Shown here: in pieces, positions 2,717-61,936 of the stretch
How the letters are laid out: each line of letters opens with the position of its first letter
How positions within the stretch are numbered: position 1 is the stretch's first letter
Source of the DNA: an uncultured Candidatus Saccharibacteria bacterium
Lineage (GTDB): Bacteria > Patescibacteriota > Minisyncoccia > Phycocordibacterales > UBA2100
Assembly: GCA_964534465.1 (NCBI GenBank)
Contig: CAZHOB010000003.1
Coordinates: 14,843-78,842, forward strand
Reading direction: 5' to 3'
Length of the DNA stretch: 64,000 nucleotides
The notes under the pieces: generated by a model
What the model saw: the letters and a program-made list of their open reading frames with translations, nothing else
What the model was told of the DNA's origin: nothing
Database searches by the model: none
Translations under genes and position numbers: made by a program

Positions 2717-2865
2717 GCAAAAATTATAGCACCGTTACAAATGGCAAACTGCTGAAAAGGGCCGGAGGCGAGGCGCCGACGAGAGAGAACCTGAGCCGTA
2801 CTTATTGTACGGTGAGGGTTCGAACAAGGAGGGCAACGATGCATCCGGCCCTTTTATGCAGTTTG

Positions 2866-3321
2866 CTAGGGTGCGGGGTAGAAGGTGACGTCTTGGGGGA
2901 TTATATGGAGCGAGAAATCAGGCACCCACCACACCTTGCAGATGGCGAGCGGCACGAAGCTGAGTCCTGATTGCGCAGCGAGCTTCTCGTACGAAGCTTT
3001 CAAACCCTGCGTATCGCGGTCGTTCCACGCTGCGGCCTGATCTTCCTGATTGACTATCATGTGTACCATCGTCTGCTTGCCAAGGACGGTGATCGTGTAA
3101 TCAAAGCGCGTGAGCCCGTTGAGGACATACATATCGCCGACTATCGAGTTGTCGTCATTCCTCCATGAAAAATGACATATCGCTGGCGGAAGTTTTTTTA
3201 TCTCTTCATAATTTCCGAGACCGATAGAGGGCGGTATGGTGCTGGAGCGGTACCAGAGATAGCCGAAATACGTACCGATCAAAAGAAGTGCACATACCAA
3301 GAGAAACTTGAATGGCTGCAT
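2866..3321 (-). CDS. Hypothetical membrane-anchored protein
   Basis: Start moved to internal Met (MQPFKFLLVCALLLIGTYFGYLW = N-terminal TM helix). Upstream part of the ORF would overlap the uvrC C-terminus. Confidence 0.45.
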   Translation of the reverse strand: MQPFKFLLVCALLLIGTYFGYLWYRSSTIPPSIGLGNYEEIKKLPPAICHFSWRNDDNSIVGDMYVLNGLTRFDYTITVLGKQTMVHMIVNQEDQAAAWNDRDTQGLKASYEKLAAQSGLSFVPLAICKVWWVPDFSLHIIPQDVTFYPAP

Positions 3322-3340
3322 TAATTCTAAGTATATCGGA

Positions 3341-4570
3341 TTACAAGAGTCGTCCACGGCGCGCGCGGTGATAACTGATACCGAAGCGATGTGCCTCACT
3401 ATTAGCCAAAAGGATGTCTTTTTCGTAGGCCGCTATCGCACGCTCGTCGCCTATCAGGCGCTCCGGCTTGTGGAATTCGTTCTTCACCACGCCGACTATC
3501 GGAATAGCCACGCCGGCGGCTTTGGTAATGCTCATGGCCGCCCGCATCTGTCCCTTGCCGCCGTCCACTACGAAAACGCGGGGAAGAGGCCACTCGGCAT
3601 GACCGAGTCGACGCTCGAGAATTTCTTTGAGTGCCGCGGTATCGTCGTTGGTCGCGGTACGAATTTTGAATTTACGGTATGCGTTCTTTATCATCTCGCC
3701 GCTATGGACGACCGTCATCACGCCGACCGTCTCTTGACCGGCCGTATGCGCCACGTCATACGCCTCAATGCGGACACCGCCTCCCGATGACACGCGGCTG
3801 TCATCCTTTATGAGTGATACATCGCGTATGTGTTCGAGCGCGAATACCTGTCTGCGCAGCGACTCGGCTTTTTCAAAGTGCTCAGCCTTGGCCGACTCTT
3901 TCATTTCTTTGGTCATTTGGCGCTTCAGTCCGTGAAAATTGCCGGAAAATAATTCGCATATCTTTTTTACCGTTTGCAGGTACTCCTCGCGCTTCATCTC
4001 CCCTGTACATACTCCAGGACACAAGCCTATCTGACGATTGAAACACGGCCGGCACATTTTGTTCTTAGGTGAACCGCACGGATCGCATTTGGAATCGCGG
4101 AACGGGAATATCCGTCGCACTATTTTTACGGCATCCTGCAGCGCGAGCCCCTGCGGAAATGGTCCGAAGATGTTGCGCGCCTGCGGCGTGTCGCCGTTGT
4201 GGTAGAGGTCGCGGCCGCGCACGACAAGCACTCGGGGAAAATCCTCTTTGGTAATGACGAGGTAGTTGAAGCTTTTGTTGTCTTTGGATGCGGAGTTATA
4301 TGGCGGCATGTGCCGCTTGATGAGGTTGGCCTCGAGGATGAGTGCCTCGAGCACGGAGTCAGTAGAATGCCACTGAATGCTATTAGCCTCCTGCACCATT
4401 TGCACGATGTGCTCTCCGCGACCATCCCGCAGGTCGTTCGAAAAATAGCTACGCACACGATCGCGCAGGCTTGCAGCCTTGCCGATATAAAGTAAATTAT
4501 GCCCTTTTTTAAAGAGATATACGCCCGGCTCGTCGGGTAATTTGAATTTTGTGAGGTCTTCTTTTTGCAT
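3341..4570 (-). CDS. uvrC: Excinuclease ABC subunit C, short form lacking C-terminal (HhH)2
   Basis: N-terminal GIY-YIG (PGVYLFKKGHNLLYIGKAASLRDRVRSYF). Cys cluster (CDPCGSPKNKMCRPCFNRQIGLCPGVC). UVR-like helix (AEHFEKAESLRRQVFALEHI). RNase H-like endonuclease domain (RIEAYDVAHTAGQETVGVMTVV..VVDGGKGQ). Start set at MQKEDL. Ends after the endonuclease domain (409 aa). Confidence 0.85.
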   Translation of the reverse strand: MQKEDLTKFKLPDEPGVYLFKKGHNLLYIGKAASLRDRVRSYFSNDLRDGRGEHIVQMVQEANSIQWHSTDSVLEALILEANLIKRHMPPYNSASKDNKSFNYLVITKEDFPRVLVVRGRDLYHNGDTPQARNIFGPFPQGLALQDAVKIVRRIFPFRDSKCDPCGSPKNKMCRPCFNRQIGLCPGVCTGEMKREEYLQTVKKICELFSGNFHGLKRQMTKEMKESAKAEHFEKAESLRRQVFALEHIRDVSLIKDDSRVSSGGGVRIEAYDVAHTAGQETVGVMTVVHSGEMIKNAYRKFKIRTATNDDTAALKEILERRLGHAEWPLPRVFVVDGGKGQMRAAMSITKAAGVAIPIVGVVKNEFHKPERLIGDERAIAAYEKDILLANSEAHRFGISYHRARRGRLL

Positions 4571-15370: not shown

Positions 15371-15786
15371 TTACGAAGCGAGCAGGGGGGCGCCCGCGAA
15401 TTCTTTCGCTTTCGCGGCAGCAAAGCGTTTTGCTTCGACGAAGCGATGCAGAGATTCAGCTGCGCCGTCTCGCCCGCCGGCACGCTTGTGGCGCGCGTAG
15501 TTGATGTCCTGCGGCATCTGATCGATCAAGTCGAAGAAGAAGGACTGCGTTTCCGTGACGTCGGAAAGCCTCCGGCGTAGAATGCGTGCGCCATCACAAA
15601 CGTATCGGTGTTGTGCCTCGAAGGCAAGCTCGAGGACGACATCCATTTGCTCCGCTGTAAGGGAAAGTGCGAGGCCAACACGCGCAAGGCATATGTGTCC
15701 CGACCCCACTCCCGCCTCGGCAAGTTTGACGAGCCTCTCGAGCACTTCTTCTCTCGTCAGGTTGAAATTCAACTGAAGCTGCTTCA
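15371..15786 (-). CDS. Small protein, member 1 of a three-paralog family (unknown function)
   Basis: Start at MKQLQLNFNLTREEV with RBS AAAGGAGCGACAG and upstream TTGACA-17-TATTAAT promoter. About 45% identical to 17064-17489. Conserved core ERI[IV].LAEAGVGSG.[IL]CLARVGLALSLT.[EQ]Q. Confidence 0.6.
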
Positions 15787-15884
15787 TCTGTCGCTCCTTT
15801 GTTTGCATTACCGAATACATTAATACAACATGTCGTGATTTATGTCAAGAAAAAAAGCGCGACCACATCGCCGCGCTTCGAGAT

Positions 15885-17063: not shown

Positions 17064-17489
17064 TCAACCCTGAAAACAGGGAGCTGCAAGGCAAGGAACG
17101 CGAGTGGACTCGATGCCCCTCGACTTGAAGAGGCCCGTGACAAAACGGTACAGCGAATCCTCCGCGTGGAGGCGACCGCCGACCGACTTGTGGCTCGCAT
17201 ACTCGCTGTCTTGCGGCATTTCTTCGATAAGCTCGAAGAAGAACTTTTGGGTCTCCGTGAGATCGCGGAGCCTGTACCTCAACATTGATGCGTCGCCTCG
17301 CACGTGGCGCAACTGAACATCGTCGACGAGAGTCCTCACGATGCTCATCTGCTGCTCGGTGAGCGAAAGTGCGAGACCGACTCGTGCGAGACACAGAAAT
17401 CCTGAGCCAACGCCCGCCTCGGCGAGCTCGATGATGCGCTCAAGGACTTCTTCGCGGGTCAATTCGTAGTTGAACTGAAGCTTGGCCAT
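17064..17489 (-). CDS. Small protein, member 3 of the three-paralog family
   Basis: MAKLQFNYELTREEVLERIIELAEAGVGSGFLCLARVGLALSLTEQQ.. paralogous to 15371-15786. Confidence 0.6.
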   Translation of the reverse strand: MAKLQFNYELTREEVLERIIELAEAGVGSGFLCLARVGLALSLTEQQMSIVRTLVDDVQLRHVRGDASMLRYRLRDLTETQKFFFELIEEMPQDSEYASHKSVGGRLHAEDSLYRFVTGLFKSRGIESTRVPCLAAPCFQG

Positions 17490-17552
17490 GGGGCTCTCCC
17501 GTTGCTATTGCTGAAGTATTCATACCACGTTATATACATTTCGTCAAATGCG

Positions 17553-18086
17553 TCACTGCTGCACCAGTTCGGCAAATCGCTTGCGTACTTTTTCGAGTTT
17601 GGGTTCGATAATGAGCTGACAGTACGGCGCGCTTTTGTTTTCTTGGTAATAATTCTTGTGATATTCCTCGGCGGGATAGAATTTTCCCAATTGAATGACC
17701 TGCGTGACCACGCGCGTGCCGTCTTTGAGAGACTCGTCAACTTCTTTTATGATTTTTTCGGCGGTCGCTTTCTCCTCATCCGTTCCATACAAAATGACGG
17801 AACGATATTGTTCACCCATATCATTCCCCTGCCGATTAGGCGTGGTCGGGTCGTGCGAGCCGAAAAAGACCGTGAGGAGATCTTGAAATGTGATAATAGC
17901 CGGATCATAGGTGACGCGGATGACTTCAGCGTGACCGGTCGAGCCCGCACTCACCTGCTCATACGAAGGATTTTCCATTTTGCCGCCGGCATAGCCGGAT
18001 TCCACTTTCGACACACCCTTCAGCATCTGAAAAACCGCCTCTGTGCACCAGAAACATCCACCTCCAAATACCGCCGTCTTTTGCAT
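17553..18086 (-). CDS. msrA: Peptide methionine sulfoxide reductase A
   Basis: Active-site motif GGGCFWCTEAVF. Length 177 aa. Confidence 0.9.
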   Translation of the reverse strand: MQKTAVFGGGCFWCTEAVFQMLKGVSKVESGYAGGKMENPSYEQVSAGSTGHAEVIRVTYDPAIITFQDLLTVFFGSHDPTTPNRQGNDMGEQYRSVILYGTDEEKATAEKIIKEVDESLKDGTRVVTQVIQLGKFYPAEEYHKNYYQENKSAPYCQLIIEPKLEKVRKRFAELVQQ

Positions 18087-18131
18087 CGATTGATTGTATC
18101 AAATCGCCCAGCTCGTATAATCCTCATATCA

Positions 18132-18689
18132 ATGTCTCAAGCTCATGAAGATGAGGGGCTTATCGAAGAATACCTCTCCGGCAACGATGACGCGTTGTCG
18201 GAAATAGTGGCGCGGCACATACGTGCGACGCATGCCTTTGCACTCCGACTCACCGGCGAGCCAAGTGATGCTGAAGAGATCGTGCAGGAGAGTTTTTTGA
18301 AAGCGTGGAAGTCGCTCAAGAATTTCGATGCAAAAAAGGCACGGTTCAAGACGTGGCTTATGCGTATCGTTCGCAACACGGCCATAGATCATTTGCGGCG
18401 TGCGAAAGCGGATATTTCGCTCGATTATGGAGACGAGCCGCTTGCACTCACCGTGCATGATGATGCGCCGCTTCCCGATGAGATCGCCGCGAGCAAAGAA
18501 GATCAAGCTGCTCTCGAGAAAGCGCTCGGTCAACTATCTGCGCTTCAGAGAGAGCTTCTGCTTCTCTACAACGGCAATGACTTTTCATTTGAGGAGATAG
18601 CCGAGATCCGCGGCGAATCGCGCAATACCATAAAGAGCCGCTACCGACGTGCCCTAGAAGCACTGAAAAAGCTCGTGCACCCAAAATGA
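18132..18689 (+). CDS. ECF-type sigma-70 family RNA polymerase sigma factor
   Basis: Sigma70 region 2 (..FLKAWKSLKNFDAKKARFKTWLMRIVRNTAIDHLRR..). Region 4 HTH (..ELLLLYNGNDFSFEEIAEIRGESRNTIKSRYRRALEALKK). Start set to MSQAHEDEG. The long upstream ORF extension overlaps msrA on the other strand. Confidence 0.85.
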   Translation: MSQAHEDEGLIEEYLSGNDDALSEIVARHIRATHAFALRLTGEPSDAEEIVQESFLKAWKSLKNFDAKKARFKTWLMRIVRNTAIDHLRRAKADISLDYGDEPLALTVHDDAPLPDEIAASKEDQAALEKALGQLSALQRELLLLYNGNDFSFEEIAEIRGESRNTIKSRYRRALEALKKLVHPK

Positions 18690-23953: not shown

Positions 23954-23994
23954 AAAGTGATGCCGCGGCGTATTGCTCGCCGCGGCATAGAAAG

Positions 23995-24321: not shown

Positions 24322-24378
24322 GGCGTTCCTCCGTTTGTTGCCGGAACGTACAATACAACATTATTGCTTGGGTCGCAA

Positions 24379-24443
24379 GAGCGGAAACAATTGCGTCTCG
24401 TGCGCAGGTTTGTTCTCAAGGAAGGCGAAGGCGTTCGGAGACG
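24379..24443. repeat. Diverged duplicate of the lysS 3' terminus (remnant copy)
   Basis: 65 nt about 95% identical to 24701-24766. On the minus strand still encodes FAFLENKPAHETQLFPLLRPKQ + stop versus lysS C-terminus FAFLENKPAHETQLFPLLRPRN + stop. Confidence 0.7.
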
Positions 24444-24491
24444 TATAAAAATAGCCGCGGCATTTCTGCCGCGGCTCGGATCGATCTGCTA

Positions 24492-24641
24492 TTAACACGG
24501 GCAGCGAGGGCCCGGGAGGTCACCGGGAGCATGAGGTGCCGGGTGTTCCGGAATGACATAGGGACCCGAAACGATCATGGCCCCGAGAAAGGCAACCGCA
24601 AAAAACCAAACAATGACTCGTGCGACGGTAACCTTATTCAC
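24492..24641 (-). CDS. Small membrane peptide (49 aa) located between the lysS 3'-end repeats
   Basis: GTG start preceded by strong RBS GGAGGAAATCGC. Hydrophobic helix VARVIVWFFAVAFLGAMIV then Pro-rich tail ending PRCPC. Confidence 0.35.
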   Translation of the reverse strand: MNKVTVARVIVWFFAVAFLGAMIVSGPYVIPEHPAPHAPGDLPGPRCPC

Positions 24642-24681
24642 GCGATTTCCTCCGAAGTTTTGAGTCTTTCGCAATTATACC

Positions 24682-26124
24682 TTAATTTCGAGGACGTAAA
24701 AGCGGAAACAATTGCGTCTCGTGCGCAGGTTTGTTCTCAAGGAAAGCGAAGAGGCGTTCGGAGACGCCGAAGCCAAAGGCTGGCGGCATGCCGTACTCCA
24801 TCGCGCGAATGTAGTTTTCGTCGAGCCTCTGGGCTTCGTCGTCGCCGGCGTCGCGCAGGCGCTGCTGCTCTTCGAATCGCGCACGCTGGTCGAGCGGGTC
24901 ATTGAGCTCGCTAAAGCCCTTTCCCATTTCGCTACCGGCGATGATGACCTGCAGGCGCTCCACCGTCTCGGGCTTTTGCACGAAGCGCTTAGCGAGCGGC
25001 TCGAGAAATACCGGAATGCCGACCAAGAACGCGGGGCCGGCGATGGTTTTGCGCACGGATTTCCAAAGGTGGTCGACGGCGCGGGCTTTGTTGAGTTTTT
25101 CCCCTACCTGAATCTGCGCGTCGCGCACGGCCTGAATAGCTTCGTCTTCGGAGCAGGCGATCGGGTCGATACCGAACTTCTCTTGGATTATTTTGCAAAA
25201 ATCGATAACTCCCCACTCTTCGGCAAGGTCCACCGTGTGCCCATTGATCTCAAAGGTGTATTTGCCGTAAACTTCTTTGGCGAGATGACGATACAGGTCT
25301 TTGACGAAGTCGCCGCCTTTTTTGAGGTCGCTAAAAGCTTCGTAACTCTCGAGCTGTGTGTAATCCTGCAAATGCTCGCGCGACTGGCCTTCGTTGCGAA
25401 AAATGCGCCCTATTTCAAATACCTTTGGATAGCCGGCGACAAGAAGCTCCTTTTGCCACAACTCGCCGGCGGAAATGCGTAGATACACATCAATATCGAG
25501 CGCATGGTGATGTGTTACAAAGGGTCGCGCGTCGGCTCCGCCGGGTGATGATTCGAGCACCGGCGTTTCCACTTCCAGAAATCCACGCGAAAGATAGAAT
25601 TCGCGCGCCGCCTGCCAAAATTTGGCGCGACGCTCGAACATCGCCCGCGTATCAGCGTTGAGGAGTATTTCGAGATATCGCTCGCGCAATCGCAGTTCTT
25701 CGTCTTTGACCCCGAAGTGTTCAGATGGAATGGGCAAAAGCGACTTGGCGAGCATTTTCCATTCCTTCACCTTCAGCGATTCCTTTCCGCGTTGCGTTTT
25801 GAACGCGGCACCTGTGACCTCGATAAAATCACCGATATCTACCGCTTGGGAAAAAAGGTCGAACGCAGATGCGCTCATCTCAGACTGCTGCAAAACCACT
25901 TGACCACGGGCTCCATCGAAGAGGTCGGCGAACATTATTCCGCCTTGGCCACGTAATGACATCACGCGCCCCGCCAGGACGCCATTTTTACCCTCCCCAA
26001 AATCTGCAAAAAAATCCGCGATTGAAGTGTCTCGTTCCGTGCTCGCGGGATACGCATCCATTCCCGCAGCCTTCAAAAGGTCGAGTTTCTTCAGTCTTTC
26101 CGAGCGAATATCCGCCTCCGACAT
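24682..26124 (-). CDS. lysS: Lysine--tRNA ligase (class II)
   Basis: N-terminal OB anticodon-binding domain. Class II motifs (..FLEVETPVL.., ..GIPVFLEPLAKRFVQKPETVERLQVIIAGSEMGKGFSELNDPLDQ..). Confidence 0.9.
   Translation of the reverse strand: MSEADIRSERLKKLDLLKAAGMDAYPASTERDTSIADFFADFGEGKNGVLAGRVMSLRGQGGIMFADLFDGARGQVVLQQSEMSASAFDLFSQAVDIGDFIEVTGAAFKTQRGKESLKVKEWKMLAKSLLPIPSEHFGVKDEELRLRERYLEILLNADTRAMFERRAKFWQAAREFYLSRGFLEVETPVLESSPGGADARPFVTHHHALDIDVYLRISAGELWQKELLVAGYPKVFEIGRIFRNEGQSREHLQDYTQLESYEAFSDLKKGGDFVKDLYRHLAKEVYGKYTFEINGHTVDLAEEWGVIDFCKIIQEKFGIDPIACSEDEAIQAVRDAQIQVGEKLNKARAVDHLWKSVRKTIAGPAFLVGIPVFLEPLAKRFVQKPETVERLQVIIAGSEMGKGFSELNDPLDQRARFEEQQRLRDAGDDEAQRLDENYIRAMEYGMPPAFGFGVSERLFAFLENKPAHETQLFPLLRPRN
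24701..24766. repeat. lysS 3'-terminal coding segment (functional copy of the direct repeat)
   Basis: Partner of 24379-24443. Lies inside the lysS CDS just before its stop codon. Confidence 0.7.
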
Positions 26125-34529: not shown

Positions 34530-35204
34530 TCATTCATGTGTCGTGGATTCGCCTAAGTGCTCGGCGTCGTTCCAGATACGAATGAGCCAATCGCCATCCT
34601 TGACCCACGGATGCCACACATTGTCGCGAGCGCGGATGATCTGCGAAAGGCCTGTATTGGTCGAGGTCATGCCAAAAAGCACGCCGCGCAATTGATCGGG
34701 CGTGATATTCTCGCCGAACATGATGCGCGCCATGATGCATCGGAGAAAGAAGCCATGCCCGACAGCAACGATCGAGTGAGCTGGATGTTTCGCCCAGAGA
34801 CCAAGCATTCTTTCAGCGCGGTTCACTATCTCCTCGAAATTTTCTCCGCCCTCCACCTTTTTACCGGAGGTAAGGAACGATTCCGTCCACTCATAGTGCA
34901 GCTGCTGACACTTCGGGTCCCATTCGTACATGCCAATGAGTCTCGGGGGCTCTTTTCGTTCCACGAGGTCGTCAAAATATTCAATGGGTTTTCCCGTCTC
35001 TTCGTGGATGAACCACGCCGTACGACGCGCTCGCTCCATGGTACTTGCGTGAATGACATCAAAATCAAGTGCGGCGCAGCGCTTCGCGACACGCGCGGCC
35101 TGCTGCTCGCCTTTTTCCGTAAGCGGTACTTCTGGTCCCCAAAATTTGTCGTCGACATTGGCCACGCTTTGTCCGTGCCGTACGAGGTATACTGTCTCTG
35201 CCAT
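34530..35204 (-). CDS. Histidine phosphatase family protein (phosphoglycerate mutase-like)
   Basis: N-terminal catalytic motif VYLVRHGQSVANV. Confidence 0.75.
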   Translation of the reverse strand: MAETVYLVRHGQSVANVDDKFWGPEVPLTEKGEQQAARVAKRCAALDFDVIHASTMERARRTAWFIHEETGKPIEYFDDLVERKEPPRLIGMYEWDPKCQQLHYEWTESFLTSGKKVEGGENFEEIVNRAERMLGLWAKHPAHSIVAVGHGFFLRCIMARIMFGENITPDQLRGVLFGMTSTNTGLSQIIRARDNVWHPWVKDGDWLIRIWNDAEHLGESTTHE

Positions 35205-35317
35205 TTTTGCATCCTATCATCTGAACTTGTCTTTTTGCATCCTATCACGGCAAAAAAGAAAGAACCGCTCACATAGTGAACGGTTCAATATTTCAACGAT
35301 GCATTTCCGCAGCGATA

Positions 35318-35611
35318 TTACCACCGACCCGCAAGCGGCCTAAGAGCACTGAAGAGCCGCTCATGCAAAGCGGGGATCAGGTCCTGAAGCGCCGCTTCGC
35401 GTGCCGGATCGCCCTCGAAATGGTTGAGCGGCAGCATGAAACCGTTGTCGCCTCTTTTGCCGATATCGAACACGATGCCGTACTCTTTCTCAAGCCCGTC
35501 GAGCGCATAGTGCAATCGACAGAAATAGCTGCCGCGCTCATGCTCGATCCGGAGTGGCTGCAAACCCGCGATAGCGGACACGGTCGAAACGTCGATGACC
35601 AGTTCGGGCAT
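35318..35611 (-). CDS. Hypothetical protein (97 aa)
   Basis: ORF only. Confidence 0.3.
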   Translation of the reverse strand: MPELVIDVSTVSAIAGLQPLRIEHERGSYFCRLHYALDGLEKEYGIVFDIGKRGDNGFMLPLNHFEGDPAREAALQDLIPALHERLFSALRPLAGRW

Positions 35612-35705
35612 TGGAATCTCCTCTGACTACCTTCGACCACATTAACATAACTGCCATATCCGTCAGGCGAGGCCTCATGGCTTGATCCTTCCCAAACGCA
35701 TTTAG

Positions 35706-35734
35706 TTGACACCTATGCATATATAGTTTATAAT
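35706..35734 (+). promoter_or_regulatory. Sigma-70-type promoter TTGACA-17-TATAAT
   Basis: Consensus hexamers with 17-nt spacer upstream of the 35777 gene. Preceded by hairpin motif shared with 36478-36500. Confidence 0.55.
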
Positions 35735-35776
35735 AATTATCGGTTGGTCGTTCACACAAACACAAAGGAGGTTGCG

Positions 35777-36283
35777 ATGGGCCACCGACTACCGCGAATA
35801 CAGTTCGTGTTCGAAGGAAGGAAGCTCTGCCACTTGAGCCAAAAGCCGTCGTGCATTCCCCCGCTCATCTTGGGCGGAAGGAAGGAACTTCGGTGGATTA
35901 CCAAGGGCCGGAGCGTGACCGCCGCATTCTACAACAGTGGCAAGCACGTCTACTGGCAATGGGACCGTACATGGCCCCGGCAATACGAACGGTGGGAGCA
36001 ACAGCTCATGTGGCTGCGCTACCAGCAATTCCCACGGAAACGTTTGCGAGGAGAGAAGCTGCCAAACTGCGTCGTGTGGCATGATGGGCACAGATGGACA
36101 AGACGGAACGGTGCGCGCATTGCACGTCTGCGCGTCCACACCTTTCATGGCAATGCGTGGACCCTGTACTTGGTACCGGACCGGATGTACTACATCGTGC
36201 ATTTCGGCGACGGATGCGAGGCGGTATTCATGACGGACGACACCGTCACGATGCCGAAGGAACTTCTTCTTGGTGATGAGTAA
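35777..36283 (+). CDS. Hypothetical Trp/Arg-rich protein (168 aa)
   Basis: Start with RBS AAAGGAGGTTGCG. Consensus promoter upstream. Confidence 0.45.
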   Translation: MGHRLPRIQFVFEGRKLCHLSQKPSCIPPLILGGRKELRWITKGRSVTAAFYNSGKHVYWQWDRTWPRQYERWEQQLMWLRYQQFPRKRLRGEKLPNCVVWHDGHRWTRRNGARIARLRVHTFHGNAWTLYLVPDRMYYIVHFGDGCEAVFMTDDTVTMPKELLLGDE

Positions 36284-36426
36284 GTAAAAATTGGAATGCT
36301 GCAAGGAATGTTTGCAAAATGACAAACATCGGATGCAGAAAATGAAAAACTCCCTTTACAATATAAATATGTAGGGAGTTTTCAGTTTGTGGTTTTACAA
36401 ACGGCAACAACCATGCGCCACTTTCT

Positions 36427-36480
36427 TTTATAAGACGAATCCCGTTTCTGTAGATGACCGTTTCTTTGCCGTCTGTACCA
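36427..36480 (-). pseudogene. Diverged remnant of the M29 aminopeptidase 3' terminus
   Basis: About 80% nt identity to 36952-37005. Minus-strand translation DGKETVIYRNGIRL versus aminopeptidase C-terminus NGKEKVIYKDGMFVL. Confidence 0.45.
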
Positions 36481-36672
36481 GAAACCATGAGGCGTCGCCT
36501 CATGGCTTGACAGATTATAATTTGTATGCATAATATTGCCCAGGAACCCATGGCAACCCTCTAGGAAAGAGAGACTTGGAATGCCGCAGCTCGGCCTAGC
36601 CGAATTGCACTCCGTCTGATGTAGAGAAGCGCTGGAATGACTCCGGCGCGCCCCAACCCGACGGAGGGAATC

Positions 36673-36909
36673 ATGGGCAATCACCATCCGACCATCACCA
36701 GGTACACCTGTGCGGTGTGTTGGCACAACGGGCAAGGGCTCCGTTGTACTGGCGACGAAGTTGCCGTGCCGTTGTGGACCTCTCTCAAAGAGGCTTACGC
36801 GGACCCCGTTCATAACGACGGGTGTGGCATCGTCGAACTCGAGATCACACTGAAGAACGTGATCATCGAGACCTCGCCGACGTGGTGCGAGGTACCGCAG
36901 GACGAATAG
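36673..36909 (+). CDS. Small Cys-containing protein (78 aa) inside the aminopeptidase-proximal insertion
   Basis: Start MGNHHPTITRYTCAVCWHNGQG with RBS GGAGGGAATC. Five Cys. T-tract terminator region ~36925-36950. Confidence 0.4.
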   Translation: MGNHHPTITRYTCAVCWHNGQGLRCTGDEVAVPLWTSLKEAYADPVHNDGCGIVELEITLKNVIIETSPTWCEVPQDE

Positions 36910-36951
36910 TCCTGCAATAAGCGCTCGGCTACGGCCGGGCGTTTTCTTTTT

Positions 36952-38190
36952 TTATAGGACGAACATTCCGTCTTTGTAGATAACCTTTTCTTTGCCGTTT
37001 TTGAGGTGGGCTGTCACGGTGCGGTCGGTGGTGGAAATGATGTCGGTGTGGACGGATGAGTCGTTGAAGCCGAGCGCTTCGGCTTGTTTCTTGGAAAGTT
37101 TGGATGGATCGCCGCGATAGGTGTCGCGATACGACATGCCGAGCGCGACGTGGGTGTTGCCGTAGCGGCCGCCCATGTTTTCATCGAAGAGTGTTTCGGC
37201 CATAAATTTGGTGATGCGCGAGTGACGGCTGTCGGTCAGCGAATACTCGCCTATTTTATCTGCATCCTTCGTCGCTATCATTTCTTTGAGGAACTTTTCG
37301 TTGGTCTTGGCGCTGCTTTTGACCACGCGACCATCTTTGAACCACAGCTGAATGCCGGTTATTTTGTTGCTATAGCGATAGAGCGGCTGATTGAATCGCA
37401 CCCAGCCTTCCGTACCGCGCCAATCGGGCGAAGTGAATATCTCAAAGCTCGGGATGTTGCGTCCGCTGCCTGCGAGCCAATTGCGCTTTTTACCGAGACG
37501 AATTTTCAAATCCATATCCGTCCCCTTGGCATGCAAATAGTCTACTTTGGGCGAAAGTTTGTTGAGTTTGGAGCGGAAGAGGTCTATTTGCCTGTACACT
37601 GCCTTCCATTTCGCAATAGGATTTTTCTCATCGAGAAAACACGCCTTGATTATCTGGTTCCAGTACTCTTTTTCACTCAATCCGGCTTCCTTTGCCATCG
37701 CGGGTGTGCCATAGAGACCGATAGTCCATGTAAATTTCCCTTTCCATTCCTTTTCGTGCCGCCAATCCATAAAAGGCTTGAGGGCCACACCGCGACGCAT
37801 GATCTTTTTTGGATCCACGCCTTTGAGCGCGTGCGGGTCGGCGTCGGAAAGGATAAAGAGCGAGTGATCCATCTGGTCCACAAGGCCGCGTAAATATTTT
37901 GCGGGAAAGAAATCGAGCTGGTGGTCTTTAGCGTGCTCGTAGAAAAAGCGGGTGAAGCTCTCGTTGCGGCGCTTGTCGCCCTGCTCGTCGTCGGGTCCGT
38001 AGTTCTGGATGACATGCCCTCCCGCAGCCACGATCGCATTGCAAACTGCGTTGTAGAGCGGTTTCGCTGATTCGGCGCTTGAAACGCGGACGACGTCGCC
38101 CTTCTTGATCCCCTTCCCGCCGCCGAGCGCAAAATTGACCAGCACGTCGGCATATTTTTTTAATATTTCGTTGCTCGGTGTGTATGACAT
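36952..38190 (-). CDS. Aminopeptidase, M29 (AmpS/PepS) family
   Basis: N-terminus MSYTPSNEILKKYADVLVNFALGGGKGIKKGDVV. Length 412 aa typical of thermophilic-type aminopeptidase family M29. Confidence 0.75.
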   Translation of the reverse strand: MSYTPSNEILKKYADVLVNFALGGGKGIKKGDVVRVSSAESAKPLYNAVCNAIVAAGGHVIQNYGPDDEQGDKRRNESFTRFFYEHAKDHQLDFFPAKYLRGLVDQMDHSLFILSDADPHALKGVDPKKIMRRGVALKPFMDWRHEKEWKGKFTWTIGLYGTPAMAKEAGLSEKEYWNQIIKACFLDEKNPIAKWKAVYRQIDLFRSKLNKLSPKVDYLHAKGTDMDLKIRLGKKRNWLAGSGRNIPSFEIFTSPDWRGTEGWVRFNQPLYRYSNKITGIQLWFKDGRVVKSSAKTNEKFLKEMIATKDADKIGEYSLTDSRHSRITKFMAETLFDENMGGRYGNTHVALGMSYRDTYRGDPSKLSKKQAEALGFNDSSVHTDIISTTDRTVTAHLKNGKEKVIYKDGMFVL

Positions 38191-54877: not shown

Positions 54878-54916
54878 CGACGCAACTATCGACCTACGAG
54901 GTCGATAGTTGCGTCG
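54878..54916. promoter_or_regulatory. 39-bp palindrome CGACGCAACTATCGACCT-acg-AGGTCGATAGTTGCGTCG in the guaC promoter region
   Basis: 18-bp perfect arms between a TTGTCA -35-like element and the guaC start. Inner 22 bp identical to 60441-60462 inside ligD. Confidence 0.5.
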
Positions 54917-59554: not shown

Positions 59555-61936
59555 TTAACGGCTGATTAACTTCGCCAATCGATGGATAGCTTCAGCGAGG
59601 TCAACACCCTTGCCGAGTATTGGTTTCCACAGATCGCCTTTTTGTTTGAGTCGCTTTGCCATGGTCTTGATCGTAAATTTGGATGGATCGAGTCCTTTGC
59701 CTACTTCCCTCCACTCGAGCGGCGTAGAGACGGTGGCGCCTGCGTGCGGCCGCACGGAGTAGGCGCACGCGAGCGTTTGACCCAAACTGTTCTGCAAATA
59801 ATCGAGGTATATCTTCGCTTTTCGCTTTTTCGGATTGCGCTCGATAGATGTGATTTCCGGTAGGCGCAGGTGAACGATTCGCATTAATATTTCCGCGAAC
59901 ACGCGCACATCCTTATATTTATATCGCGCTCCAAGCGGTACGCAGACGTGGAGGCCGCTCTTGCCCGAAGTCTTTATCAAATGATTTTCGCACGCCACAT
60001 CGAGCACGTCTTTCACAACGAGCGCCACTTTGACGAGATCGCCAAAGGGGCGCTCGTGCGGATCTAGGTCGAGTATCATGTAATCGGGTTTTTCGAGTGA
60101 ACCGACGCGCGAGTTCCACGGATTAAGCTCTATGCAGCCAAGATTGGCCATATAAAGGAGCGTCTCTTTGTTGTTACATACGATGTAATTGATGAAGTCG
60201 TTGTTGTGCTCCGACCACACCTTGGTCCTTTCAACGAAATCCGGCAATTTTGTCGTCCAGTTCTTGTGATAAAAACTCTTGCCCATGATACCGTTGGGGT
60301 GCCTGTTGAGATTCTCCGGCCGGTCTTTGAGATACGGTAAAAGTATCTCGGCTACGCTTTCATAGTAAGCAATAAGGTCGCCCTTGGTGTAACTCTCTTT
60401 CGGCCAGAACACTTTGTCCAAGTGGGTCAATTGCGGCGTATATCGACCTACGAGGTCGATAGTGCTCGTTCGTTGTATTTCTTTTTTGACCTCGCTAGGT
60501 TTTTTATCTATGCGCAATCCGGCATAGATAGGATGTCGCATTCGCCCATCCGGTGTCCATTCCGTAAATTTTATCTGAGCTACGTACTTGGGTTTCACCC
60601 ACGTAATGGGACTGTTTACCGGCACCTCCTCGGCCACGGTGGGCTTTATCACGGCGATCTTCTGCAATTTTGCACGAAGTTGCTTCAGCTCGGTGTCGGT
60701 AAAGCCGCCACCGCTGTGCCCTACGTAACGCAACTGGCCATTTACATAAGCACCAAGGACCAGCGAGCCCAAATGCTTGCGCGAGCCGCGCGGCTCGGTG
60801 TAGCCGATGATGATCGCCTCCTGTTCGTGAACACTCTTGATCTTGAGCCACTCATCGCCGCGCACACCTTCGCGGTAGCGGCTCGACGCGTTCTTGGCGA
60901 TCATTCCCTCGCGACCCTGCCGACGCATTTTCTGAAAAAATTTCCCGCCATCGCGCATGACGTGTTCGCTGTACCGCAATACGTCGTCTTTGGGGATGAT
61001 CTTTTGCAAAAGGTCTTTGCGCTCGTGGAGTGGCTCACCACGCAGATCGCGCCCGTCGAGATAGAGCAAGTCAAAAATTTGATAACGAAGCGGGGCGGCC
61101 TTCTCCTGATACTGCTGCAGTGTATGAAAATCCTCGCGGCCATTACGTATTGCGATGATCTCGCCGTCGAGCACGCAATCATGCTTGATGCGCTTCAGAG
61201 AATCGACGACTGGCTTATAGATATCGGCAAATGACTTGCCATTGCGCGAATAGAGTTTGACCTCGCCGCCCCCTATCTCTGCGATCGCGCGATAGCCGTC
61301 CCACTTCGGCTCAAAATACCAGCCGTTTTTGTCGAACGGCTGGTCTACAGGCTTCGCCAACATCGGTTTTACATGCTGCGGCATTGTATCCTCACCACTT
61401 CGCCGCAAACGCAACTTTGTTGCATTAGTGGAATATTCGTCTCGCTCTTTGACGAGAAGCCACTGGTTCTGACCGCCACTTTTCATTTTTATGAGGGCAA
61501 ATCCACCCTCCAGTTTTTCTCCCTGTAGAAGAAATTTTATTTCGCCTTTATGAAGCCCGTTTTTTATTTTTTTTCGAGTCTCTTCAGGATCGGCGCTGTC
61601 CACACTTGAATAGACGCCCTTGTCCCATGTCTCCACCTTCCCCGCCCCATAATGACCTTTGGGAATGGTTCCTTGGAACTTGGCGTATTCGAGCGGATGG
61701 TCTTCAGTCATTATGGCCAAACGTTTGTCGGCGGTATCCATCGACGGGCCTTTCGGTACAGCCCAGCTCTTGAGCACACCATCGAGCTCCAAGCGAAAAT
61801 CGTAATGCAGCGAGCGAGCGGCGTGCTTTTGTACGACGAAATGGAGCGGGCCTTTTGGATGCGGGCGCTCGTGCGTGCCCTTTGGTTCCGGCGTCTCTTT
61901 AAATGAACGCCGCTTGTTGTACTCGGCAAGAGCCAT
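59555..61936 (-). CDS. ligD: Multidomain ATP-dependent DNA ligase LigD (PE-ligase-polymerase order)
   Basis: N-terminal phosphoesterase domain (..HYDFRLELDGVLKSWAVPKGPS..). Ligase adenylation motif EPKWDGYR. C-terminal primase-polymerase domain (..IELNPWNSRV..LDLDP..). Confidence 0.85.
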   Translation of the reverse strand: MALAEYNKRRSFKETPEPKGTHERPHPKGPLHFVVQKHAARSLHYDFRLELDGVLKSWAVPKGPSMDTADKRLAIMTEDHPLEYAKFQGTIPKGHYGAGKVETWDKGVYSSVDSADPEETRKKIKNGLHKGEIKFLLQGEKLEGGFALIKMKSGGQNQWLLVKERDEYSTNATKLRLRRSGEDTMPQHVKPMLAKPVDQPFDKNGWYFEPKWDGYRAIAEIGGGEVKLYSRNGKSFADIYKPVVDSLKRIKHDCVLDGEIIAIRNGREDFHTLQQYQEKAAPLRYQIFDLLYLDGRDLRGEPLHERKDLLQKIIPKDDVLRYSEHVMRDGGKFFQKMRRQGREGMIAKNASSRYREGVRGDEWLKIKSVHEQEAIIIGYTEPRGSRKHLGSLVLGAYVNGQLRYVGHSGGGFTDTELKQLRAKLQKIAVIKPTVAEEVPVNSPITWVKPKYVAQIKFTEWTPDGRMRHPIYAGLRIDKKPSEVKKEIQRTSTIDLVGRYTPQLTHLDKVFWPKESYTKGDLIAYYESVAEILLPYLKDRPENLNRHPNGIMGKSFYHKNWTTKLPDFVERTKVWSEHNNDFINYIVCNNKETLLYMANLGCIELNPWNSRVGSLEKPDYMILDLDPHERPFGDLVKVALVVKDVLDVACENHLIKTSGKSGLHVCVPLGARYKYKDVRVFAEILMRIVHLRLPEITSIERNPKKRKAKIYLDYLQNSLGQTLACAYSVRPHAGATVSTPLEWREVGKGLDPSKFTIKTMAKRLKQKGDLWKPILGKGVDLAEAIHRLAKLISR

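Follow-up and report, generated by a model that had tools for sequence, protein, structure and literature searches.

A displaced copy of a gene 3' end marks a single-gene insert beside the M29 aminopeptidase gene of an uncultured Candidatus Saccharibacteria bacterium

The stretch of DNA analysed here, referred to below as the window, comprises 64,000 nt from an uncultured Candidatus Saccharibacteria bacterium (GenBank assembly GCA_964534465.1, contig CAZHOB010000003.1, positions 14,843 to 78,842). Its minus strand carries a gene for an M29 aminopeptidase, and directly past the stop codon of this gene, on the opposite strand, lies a short insert with one small-protein gene, orf90, followed by a second and damaged copy of the end of the aminopeptidase gene. 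In window coordinates the features at this site are as follows.

36952–38190, minus strand: M29 aminopeptidase gene, 412 amino acids (Pfam Peptidase_M29, E = 2e-93), the target of the insertion
36946–36998, minus strand: current, functional copy of the 3' end, which the alignment delimits as the final 16 codons with the stop codon and the 6 nt that follow it
36919–36954, plus strand: intrinsic terminator of orf90 (hairpin 36919–36944; 11-bp stem with seven GC pairs; T-tract), abutting the aminopeptidase stop codon
36673–36909, plus strand: orf90, 78-amino-acid protein from ATG 36673, with an alternative 90-amino-acid form from the upstream ATG 36637
36543–36672, plus strand: 5' untranslated region (UTR) of orf90, about 130 nt from a predicted transcription start, with the stem-loop GCGCTGGAatgacTCCGGCGC at 36629–36649 and the ribosome-binding site ACGGAGGG
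36507–36536, plus strand: sigma-70-like promoter of orf90, read as TTGACA-16-CATAAT (11/12) or TTGACA-18-TAATAT (10/12)
36473–36512, plus strand: far boundary of the orf90 unit, where CTGTACCAGAAA is followed by the perfect palindrome CCATGAGGCgtcGCCTCATGG and the -35 box TTGACA
36421–36472, minus strand: displaced 3'-end remnant, frameshifted by a 2-nt deletion (45/54 identity, z = 21)

Smith–Waterman alignment of 36421–36472 with 36946–36998 gives 45 identical columns out of 54, with six mismatches and three gap columns. The alignment score is 60, compared with 18.3 ± 2.0 in shuffles, and the core pair returned by the repeat finder (36439–36472 and 36965–36998) is 85% identical at a spacing of 526. 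The match takes in the stop codon and the 6 nt past it and then stops sharply at GCCGT, beyond which the gene reads TTTTGAGG and the remnant CTGTACC. The remnant translates as ..DGKETVIYRNG up to the 2-nt deletion; once the two missing bases are put back, the sequence becomes DGKETVIYRNGxFVL-stop, in register with the gene's ..NGKEKVIYKDGMFVL-stop. The current C-terminus, KVIYKDGxFVL, is the family consensus, and the remnant is nearer to this real end (39/47) than is any of 62 orthologues (38/47 at most). The first-pass annotation, made from the sequence alone, had placed the two copies at 36427–36480 and 36952–37005; the repeat itself stands well clear of the shuffled background, while its coordinates had to be corrected.

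As the copies are short and imperfect, chance similarity, or the template and variable repeats of a diversity-generating retroelement, might be thought to account for them. We reject both explanations. Apart from the z score, a downstream copy of the 3' end was found for only two of the 70 window genes (lysS, z = 58; aminopeptidase, z = 20), both of which encode housekeeping enzymes. The mismatches (A/C, T/C, A/G, G/A, A/G and C/T) are not adenine-specific, and no reverse transcriptase was seen in the scanned window open reading frames (ORFs).

The contig belongs to a metagenome-assembled genome, and an assembler might have concatenated two strain variants of the locus. An independently assembled Logan contig (L001), equivalent to window 35779–37759, includes both copies and the whole insert at 100% identity. 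The longest exact word common to the two copies is 12 nt (overall identity 83%), so that there is no graph repeat to mis-join, and these two facts together make mis-assembly very unlikely at the aminopeptidase locus. Both the remnant described here and that at lysS also contain frameshifts, which would not be expected in a functional allele. At lysS the support is weaker: Logan contig L120 (SRR8931233_858) starts at window 24369, inside the tail of the lysS remnant and about 10 nt past the identity block described below, which leaves that duplication without independent assembly support. Taken over both loci, we consider an assembly artefact highly improbable.

The insert proper (36473–36951) reads, on the plus strand, as boundary, promoter, 5' UTR, 78-codon ORF and terminator. 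The ORF, its GGAGGG ribosome-binding site and the terminator hairpin had all been pointed out before and are present, and the terminator probably serves both of the convergent genes. The in-frame codon score of orf90 is 0.244, the best of the six frames and inside the range of 0.15–0.45 found for conserved genes of the window. A word-indexed homologue search with orf90 returned only itself, whereas a phmmer scan of 1.84 billion representatives gave one true homologue, P0125 (81 amino acids; 45% identity, E = 7e-6); four further matches in the same scan were spurious repeat proteins. Pairwise BLASTP of the two proteins gives 43% identity (2e-14), with the motifs TITRYTC and CG-VE-EITLK in common. 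Only two of the five cysteines are conserved in this sole homologue, and the description of the protein as Cys-rich was therefore an overstatement. P0125 is encoded in another Paceibacterota genome at a different locus (L115). The codon usage, together with the presence of a homologue at another locus, indicates that orf90 is a real gene, as the first-pass annotation had held. Its function is less tractable: profile searches of Pfam, PHROGs and the Protein Data Bank (PDB) gave no match, no signal peptide or membrane segment is visible in the sequence, and AlphaFold2 models were unusable, with a predicted local distance difference test score of 45.6 from the single sequence and 43.4 from a two-sequence alignment. 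Neither the protein nor the cassette DNA nor either of the boundary motifs matched anything in phage, plasmid or IMG/VR sequences.

The last 44 nt of the 5' UTR, comprising a GC-rich stem-loop and the ribosome-binding site, are conserved at the locus of the homologue (z = 4.5). The 5' UTR has a folding z score of -2.25, and no Rfam family matched it at gathering or E-value thresholds. The conserved stem-loop could be a regulatory RNA element. The stem-loop takes the form GCGCYGG..loop..CYKCGGCGC and lies about 12 nt before the ribosome-binding site in both genes of the orf90 family (36629–36668 here; 3610–3657 in L115), and one U-G pair of the stem is replaced by C-G between the two loci.

Comparison with related genomes gives the polarity of the event. 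Orthologues of the aminopeptidase share 74–88% amino-acid identity across about 90 Kaiserbacteria/Parcubacteria loci; the closest, from Kaiserbacteria GW2011_GWA2_52_12, is 88% identical, and none nearer was found in the metagenome scan. In about 30 related loci, including the closest, a histidine phosphatase gene begins 0–50 nt past the aminopeptidase stop codon on the same strand. This adjacency indicates that the 1.75 kb between the two genes in the window (35205–36951) is extra and lineage-specific. A gene-end remnant was absent from all of the approximately 96 related loci in which the downstream sequence was long enough for the comparison, and no coding sequence resembling orf90, orf168 or orf97 (the latter two are described below) was found across 114 related loci. 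One candidate, a 17-mer 'remnant' in L019 and L059, proved to be ruvB coding sequence. The claim of an insertion is thus borne out against relatives, among which the region is not conserved. It had, however, been pictured as a single insert, and the orf90 unit is only the newest layer of an islet of three orphan transcription units. The remaining features of the islet are listed here.

35659–36420, plus strand: older unit orf168, with a degenerate palindrome and CTTGA at 35659–35685, a promoter at 35706–35734, an ORF at 35777–36283 and a hairpin at approximately 36345–36385
35262–35611, minus strand: third orphan unit, orf97, with an ORF at 35318–35611 and a terminator at 35286–35262
34530–35204, minus strand: histidine phosphatase gene (Pfam His_Phos_1, E = 1.5e-30), which directly followed the aminopeptidase gene in the ancestral arrangement

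The remnant sits between the orf168 and orf90 units and does not abut the phosphatase gene. The orf168 promoter matches the consensus at 12 of 12 positions; the codon score of its ORF is 0.00, and among 5.8 billion sequences its protein matched only itself. The base composition of the islet shows no anomaly. The palindrome and TTGACA noted earlier at the remnant boundary are present at 36486–36512. The palindrome is not unique, as a degenerate copy lies at the far end of the orf168 unit, where the 14-mer GCCTCATGGCTTGA of the orf90 boundary recurs exactly (35672–35685). The distal boundaries of the two units are similar at z = 8.4, while their interiors (z = 0.5) and their proteins are unrelated. 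Two further candidates were discarded: the similarity of an inverted copy of the phosphatase leader after orf168 was not significant, and an inverted TTCTTT..GCCGT motif at 35247–35260 is simply the T-tract of the orf97 terminator. At the phosphatase side of the islet, two identical copies of a 16-nt direct repeat, TGATAGGATGCAAAAA, lie 28 nt from each other at 35212–35258, the second of them ending at the phosphatase start codon; this may be a small scar of the 5'-side junction of the islet.

The same layout is found at lysS, as had been proposed, with a small ORF and a terminator between the two copies of the gene end. The window also encodes other housekeeping functions (uvrABC, tyrS, murB, ddl, OTCase, G6PD, GDH and IMPDH). 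The lysS features are the following.

24682–26124, minus strand: lysS
24361–24769, minus strand: the corresponding lysS case, with the real 3' end at 24682–24769, a 49-amino-acid membrane-protein ORF at 24492–24641, a terminator at 24453–24476 and the remnant at 24361–24446

The lysS remnant is a copy of the last 86 nt of the gene, 321 nt downstream, and beyond it lie orf108, a second terminator (23960–23988) and a convergent DUF5666 gene. The 49-amino-acid protein ends in CPC; it has no match in PHROGs and only two sub-threshold matches in Pfam (E = 0.07), and Pfam and PHROGs also gave no match for the orf168, orf97 and orf108 proteins or for the ORF of locus L016 described below. The two lysS copies share a block of 44 nt of perfect identity (24380–24423 and 24701–24744). 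Past this block the last six codons diverge abruptly, with four synonymous and no nonsynonymous changes at the conserved LLRP codons, together with R/K and N/Q differences. Each of the resulting termini, RPRN and RPKQ, also occurs naturally in a set of 120 relatives. The clustering of synonymous changes in the tail, and the natural occurrence of both termini, argue that two functional lysS alleles have been joined and that the remnant did not simply decay in place. None of the six codons of the current tail ends in G or C, compared with a genome GC content at third codon positions (GC3) of 0.63, and a TATAAT follows 3 nt after the stop codon, which suggests that the current lysS tail arrived with the insert. 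The remnant also has a 2-nt deletion outside the identity block, and excision within the block would therefore restore an intact lysS; at the aminopeptidase locus excision would mostly not restore an intact gene. Empty sites are known here as well: in L047, and in L118 and L119, lysS lies directly against the convergent DUF5666–MacB–ABC genes. In L118 and L119, where synteny with the window is otherwise kept, nothing but a 46-nt terminator separates lysS from the DUF5666 gene.

A local tandem duplication, in which the gene 3' end was copied together with the downstream unit as far as its hairpin or terminator and one of the two interiors was later replaced or diverged, is the main rival explanation for these arrangements. 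At each locus both units do have both ends in common: the palindrome and 14-mer beside the aminopeptidase gene and, at lysS, the two terminators with the GCCGCGGC stem (z = 7.3), where in addition CGGAGGAA stands exactly 27 nt after the stop in both units. Such a duplication would need no recombinase and would leave no third copy of the gene end, and no third copy is found. The interiors, however, show no residual similarity at either locus (z = 0.5 and 0.0) and differ two-fold in length, while the non-coding ends are still 75–93% identical. This pairing of unrelated interiors with similar ends (z = 21 for the 3' end and 8.4 for the boundary) argues against duplication followed by drift. The differences at conserved codons of the lysS tail are all synonymous and are clustered, not uniform, and orf90 occurs with its UTR at another locus in another genome. 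In our view these observations make tandem duplication unlikely, though it is the alternative to be taken most seriously.

Two further cases were found outside the window. In L016 (Kaiserbacteria RIFCSPLOWO2_01_FULL_54_13; 1387–2517) a second copy of the purF 3' end occurs 1090 nt downstream, with a 25-nt identity block and an alternative in-frame C-terminus. Between the copies lies an antisense orphan ORF of 338 codons, the ribosome-binding site of which straddles the junction with the remnant. In L113 (383–1155) a 730-nt single-gene insert is flanked by 43-nt repeats made up of the last four codons of the upstream gene and the spacer to the next start codon. In the approximately 780 kb surveyed, these two, lysS and the aminopeptidase gene are the only clear cases; the other matches are tandem paralogues or intergenic hairpin repeats.

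Some details of these loci, and other repeats seen in the survey, are recorded here for completeness. The L016 ORF contains an internal 66-nt repeat and recurs with 100% identity in L067. The gene inserted in L113 encodes a 221-amino-acid protein resembling helix-turn-helix proteins, and the locus has a distant (31%) M29 homologue. In L022 an intergenic hairpin repeat, AATTCCTTATTTCC..GGAAATAAGGA, is present in three copies (1003–1039, 3273–3311 and 3888–3922), each right before a gene start. In L015 (7639–7845) a 44-nt repeat (89%) with a spacing of 163 nt lies at the 3' end of a 182-amino-acid gene; the DNA between is GC-rich and structured-looking and has no ORF. Within the window, an apparent 5'-end duplicate at 15371–15820 was rejected as one member of a paralogue pair. 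This small gene and that at 17064–17489, both on the minus strand, share an N-terminal segment (79 nt, about 70%) and are probably paralogues; the second lies just upstream of, and divergent from, a sigma-factor gene (17502–18689). An exact 23-nt direct repeat occurs at 54887–54909 and 60441–60463, 5.5 kb apart, inside two unrelated genes, those of IMPDH and of a 793-amino-acid ORF.

The locus of the orf90 homologue differs in its organization from the aminopeptidase site. P0125 is encoded in L115 (ENA ERZ27256510 k141_1373183), which belongs to a genome that elsewhere keeps synteny with the window, at a site far from the aminopeptidase gene. At least three single-gene units, P0125 among them, follow one another there with a 46-nt direct repeat, TGTTCCAAAAAGGTTCCAACGTCGTCCCAAACCCCCAGTTTGACAT, between them. 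Four copies of the repeat (at 2759, 3471, 3944 and 4331) span an array from 2759 to 4376, which is also present in L116 and L117. The units have promoter-like sites (one, upstream of P0125, with an 11/12 match) and terminator-like sites, and one unit is inverted. Adjoining the array is a gene for a helicase with Pfam 'integrase repeat' units. The 46-nt repeat is absent from 21 kb elsewhere on its contig and from IMG/VR, and its DNA folds no better than shuffles, unlike an attC site. A homology between the boundary palindrome in the window and this repeat was suggested by MAFFT; it was not significant on a proper test (z = -0.9) and was not used.

These observations bear on a more specific alternative, that of dedicated miniature mobile cassettes: single-gene elements without an integrase, with attachment (att) sites that mimic the tail of a housekeeping gene, which would be moved by a chromosomal or helper recombinase and would accrete over time. 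In its favour, the architecture recurs at lysS, the aminopeptidase gene, purF and the L113 insert, the orf90 homologue lies in an array of units split by repeats, and the inserted gene of L016 has its ribosome-binding site across the remnant junction. The pattern of an identity block that gives way to an alternative functional tail is, moreover, familiar in att sites. Set against this are the missing recombinase, ends that are unrelated between loci, repeats that do not fold like attC, a window boundary without significant homology to the L115 repeat, and the handful of cases in the whole survey. We regard the explanation as rather improbable. The first-pass annotation had suggested a recurring class of cassettes that target gene 3' ends. 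To speak of a single class goes past the evidence, since the lysS and aminopeptidase cassettes have no terminal or internal sequence in common and no recombinase was found in the cassettes or the window, and since recombination with a related strain could give the same scar.

Several known systems resemble the arrangement in part. Islands inserted in tRNA or tmRNA genes, or in the 3' ends of protein genes, regenerate their target, a principle that has been used to map islands in tRNA genes (Islander; PMC4383910). As with such 3'-end islands and prophages, the insert is bounded by direct repeats, one in the regenerated target and one in the displaced fragment; an identity block followed by an alternative tail supplied by the element is clear at lysS and purF, and empty sites are found in relatives. 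Integration of e14 and phage 21 in icd is an example involving the 3' end of a protein gene. Unlike these islands, the present inserts are only 0.25–0.5 kb long with one gene and no integrase inside, and at the aminopeptidase gene the repeat is 83% identical with a longest identity of 12 nt.

The cis-mobilizable elements (CIMEs) of streptococci are described as accreting in tandem where their target gene ends, so that the newest element lies beside that gene (PMC5704250, which cites Pavlovic 2004 and Bellanger 2011). The units reported here are similar in being flanked by att-like sites, in having no integration or transfer genes and in being stacked in tandem with the newest beside the gene. 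CIMEs are decayed integrative and conjugative or integrative and mobilizable elements of several kilobases with recognizable relatives; here there is no decayed trace of mobility genes and the far att copy of the older unit is missing. Nor do other signs of decay of the CIME type appear: the units contain no gene fragments, orf90 has one homologue and orf168 none, and there is no phage, plasmid or IMG/VR match. In the Tycheposon islands of Prochlorococcus, repeated integrations at one site push older elements inward and scatter partial target copies (bioRxiv 10.1101/2020.12.28.424599). A streamlined genome and stacking at one site are common to both situations, while Tycheposons are kilobase-sized, carry tyrosine recombinases and mostly target tRNA genes.

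The resemblance to integrons is best in L115, where, as in integron arrays and clusters of attC sites lacking integron integrases (CALINs), unrelated single-gene units are split by a short repeated site. Integron cassettes and CALINs are arrays of single-gene units with attC hairpin sites, in which the ORFs are mostly promoterless and co-oriented and lie next to intI. In contrast, the repeats considered here are not attC-like hairpins, the units have their own promoters and terminators and one L115 unit is inverted; no intI was found in the scanned window ORFs or in the L115 neighbourhood. The insert also lacks the signature of an insertion sequence or a miniature inverted-repeat transposable element, as it has no terminal inverted repeats and the duplication measures 52–86 nt where 2–14 bp would be expected. 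Homology-facilitated illegitimate recombination, reportedly described by de Vries and Wackernagel in 2002 in natural transformation, would require no dedicated enzyme or shared ends: one homologous anchor and one illegitimate joint upstream of the crossover give this scar. The usual outcome of that process is replacement or deletion, not duplication, and it leaves unexplained why both joints lie 8–12 nt beyond a hairpin.

In our view the most consistent interpretation, to which we assign a probability of roughly 0.6, is a single crossover within the 3' end of the aminopeptidase gene, with incoming DNA on which a copy of that end was already present, so that the topology is that of an integrative element which regenerates its target. 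The incoming DNA would have comprised the self-contained cassette at 36473–36951 with its copy of the aminopeptidase 3' end, and would have entered the chromosome by one crossover inside the last 50 nt or so of the gene. The outcome would be an intact gene on one side, composed of the host body and a rebuilt tail, and the displaced tail on the other, which would later have acquired the frameshift and about 17% substitutions. At least two insertions would then have been stacked in the interval from the aminopeptidase gene to the phosphatase gene, that of orf90 being the most recent. The incoming DNA would have been either circular or joined illegitimately at one end. The proposal that the insertion is older than that at lysS because its copies are more diverged is plausible, as the differences are evenly spread with a ratio of four nonsynonymous to three synonymous changes, although it falls short of proof.

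A number of findings weigh against this interpretation. No integrase, transposase or other recombinase was found in the cassette or in the approximately 35 larger window ORFs scanned, and the aminopeptidase and lysS cassettes do not share their end sequences. Serial site-specific accretion predicts a third copy of the gene end unless it has been deleted, and none lies beyond the older units: candidates around the phosphatase gene, sought in both orientations, and those past the second boundary were not significant (z ≤ 2), and there is none at lysS beyond orf108. The exact-identity block at the aminopeptidase gene is only 12 nt, shorter than the blocks of lysS (44 nt) and purF (25 nt), and the remnant tail, with T, R and N at the conserved K, K and D, looks drifted, with the consequence that the native tail cannot be told at this locus. 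A sliding comparison of identity with the 62 orthologues showed only noise and no clear foreign 3' segment in the aminopeptidase gene. Finally, with the nearest relative at 88% amino-acid identity, the event has not been caught as a strain-level polymorphism.

As to the catalyst of the proposed crossover, the chances appear about even for two candidates: a site-specific recombinase supplied in trans to a miniature cassette with an att site, and RecA-type recombination with DNA taken up from a related strain. In the second case, a route that is equally economical and calls for no special enzyme, the donor strain would have carried another gene at this position; its DNA would be anchored by homology in the aminopeptidase or lysS gene and joined illegitimately at its other end, or circularized beforehand, and two 'alleles' of a hypervariable slot would come to be stacked. 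Under such stacking the far ends would be similar within a locus because they are positional orthologues (the second lysS-locus terminator, T2, is where L118 has its terminator), and the ends would differ between loci. This route leaves unexplained the position of both joints 8–12 nt past a hairpin and the presence of an orf90 relative at another locus.

Bacteria of the candidate phyla radiation (CPR) have genomes of about 1 Mb with few recognizable mobile elements and many lineage-specific orphan genes. The principle of a regenerated target with a displaced fragment is known; what is new here is its miniature, integrase-less form in a CPR genome. A broader conjecture, which we put forward as doubtful, is that CPR bacteria, and perhaps DPANN archaea too, gain orphan genes through an undescribed type of miniature cassette: a single self-transcribed gene of 0.25–1 kb, with no recombinase of its own and a surrogate housekeeping-gene tail as its attachment site, which host or helper enzymes would insert and stack, giving hypervariable islets at gene 3' ends and at intergenic repeat sites. 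The scars described here show that single orphan genes with their own promoter and terminator have been added beside essential genes, leaving these intact, and that such additions have accumulated in layers. Were a dedicated mechanism responsible, genes would flow by a new route in a group of organisms that forms a large share of bacterial diversity. If ordinary recombination between related strains is responsible, displaced gene ends would serve as dated markers of insertions and allele exchange in uncultured populations.

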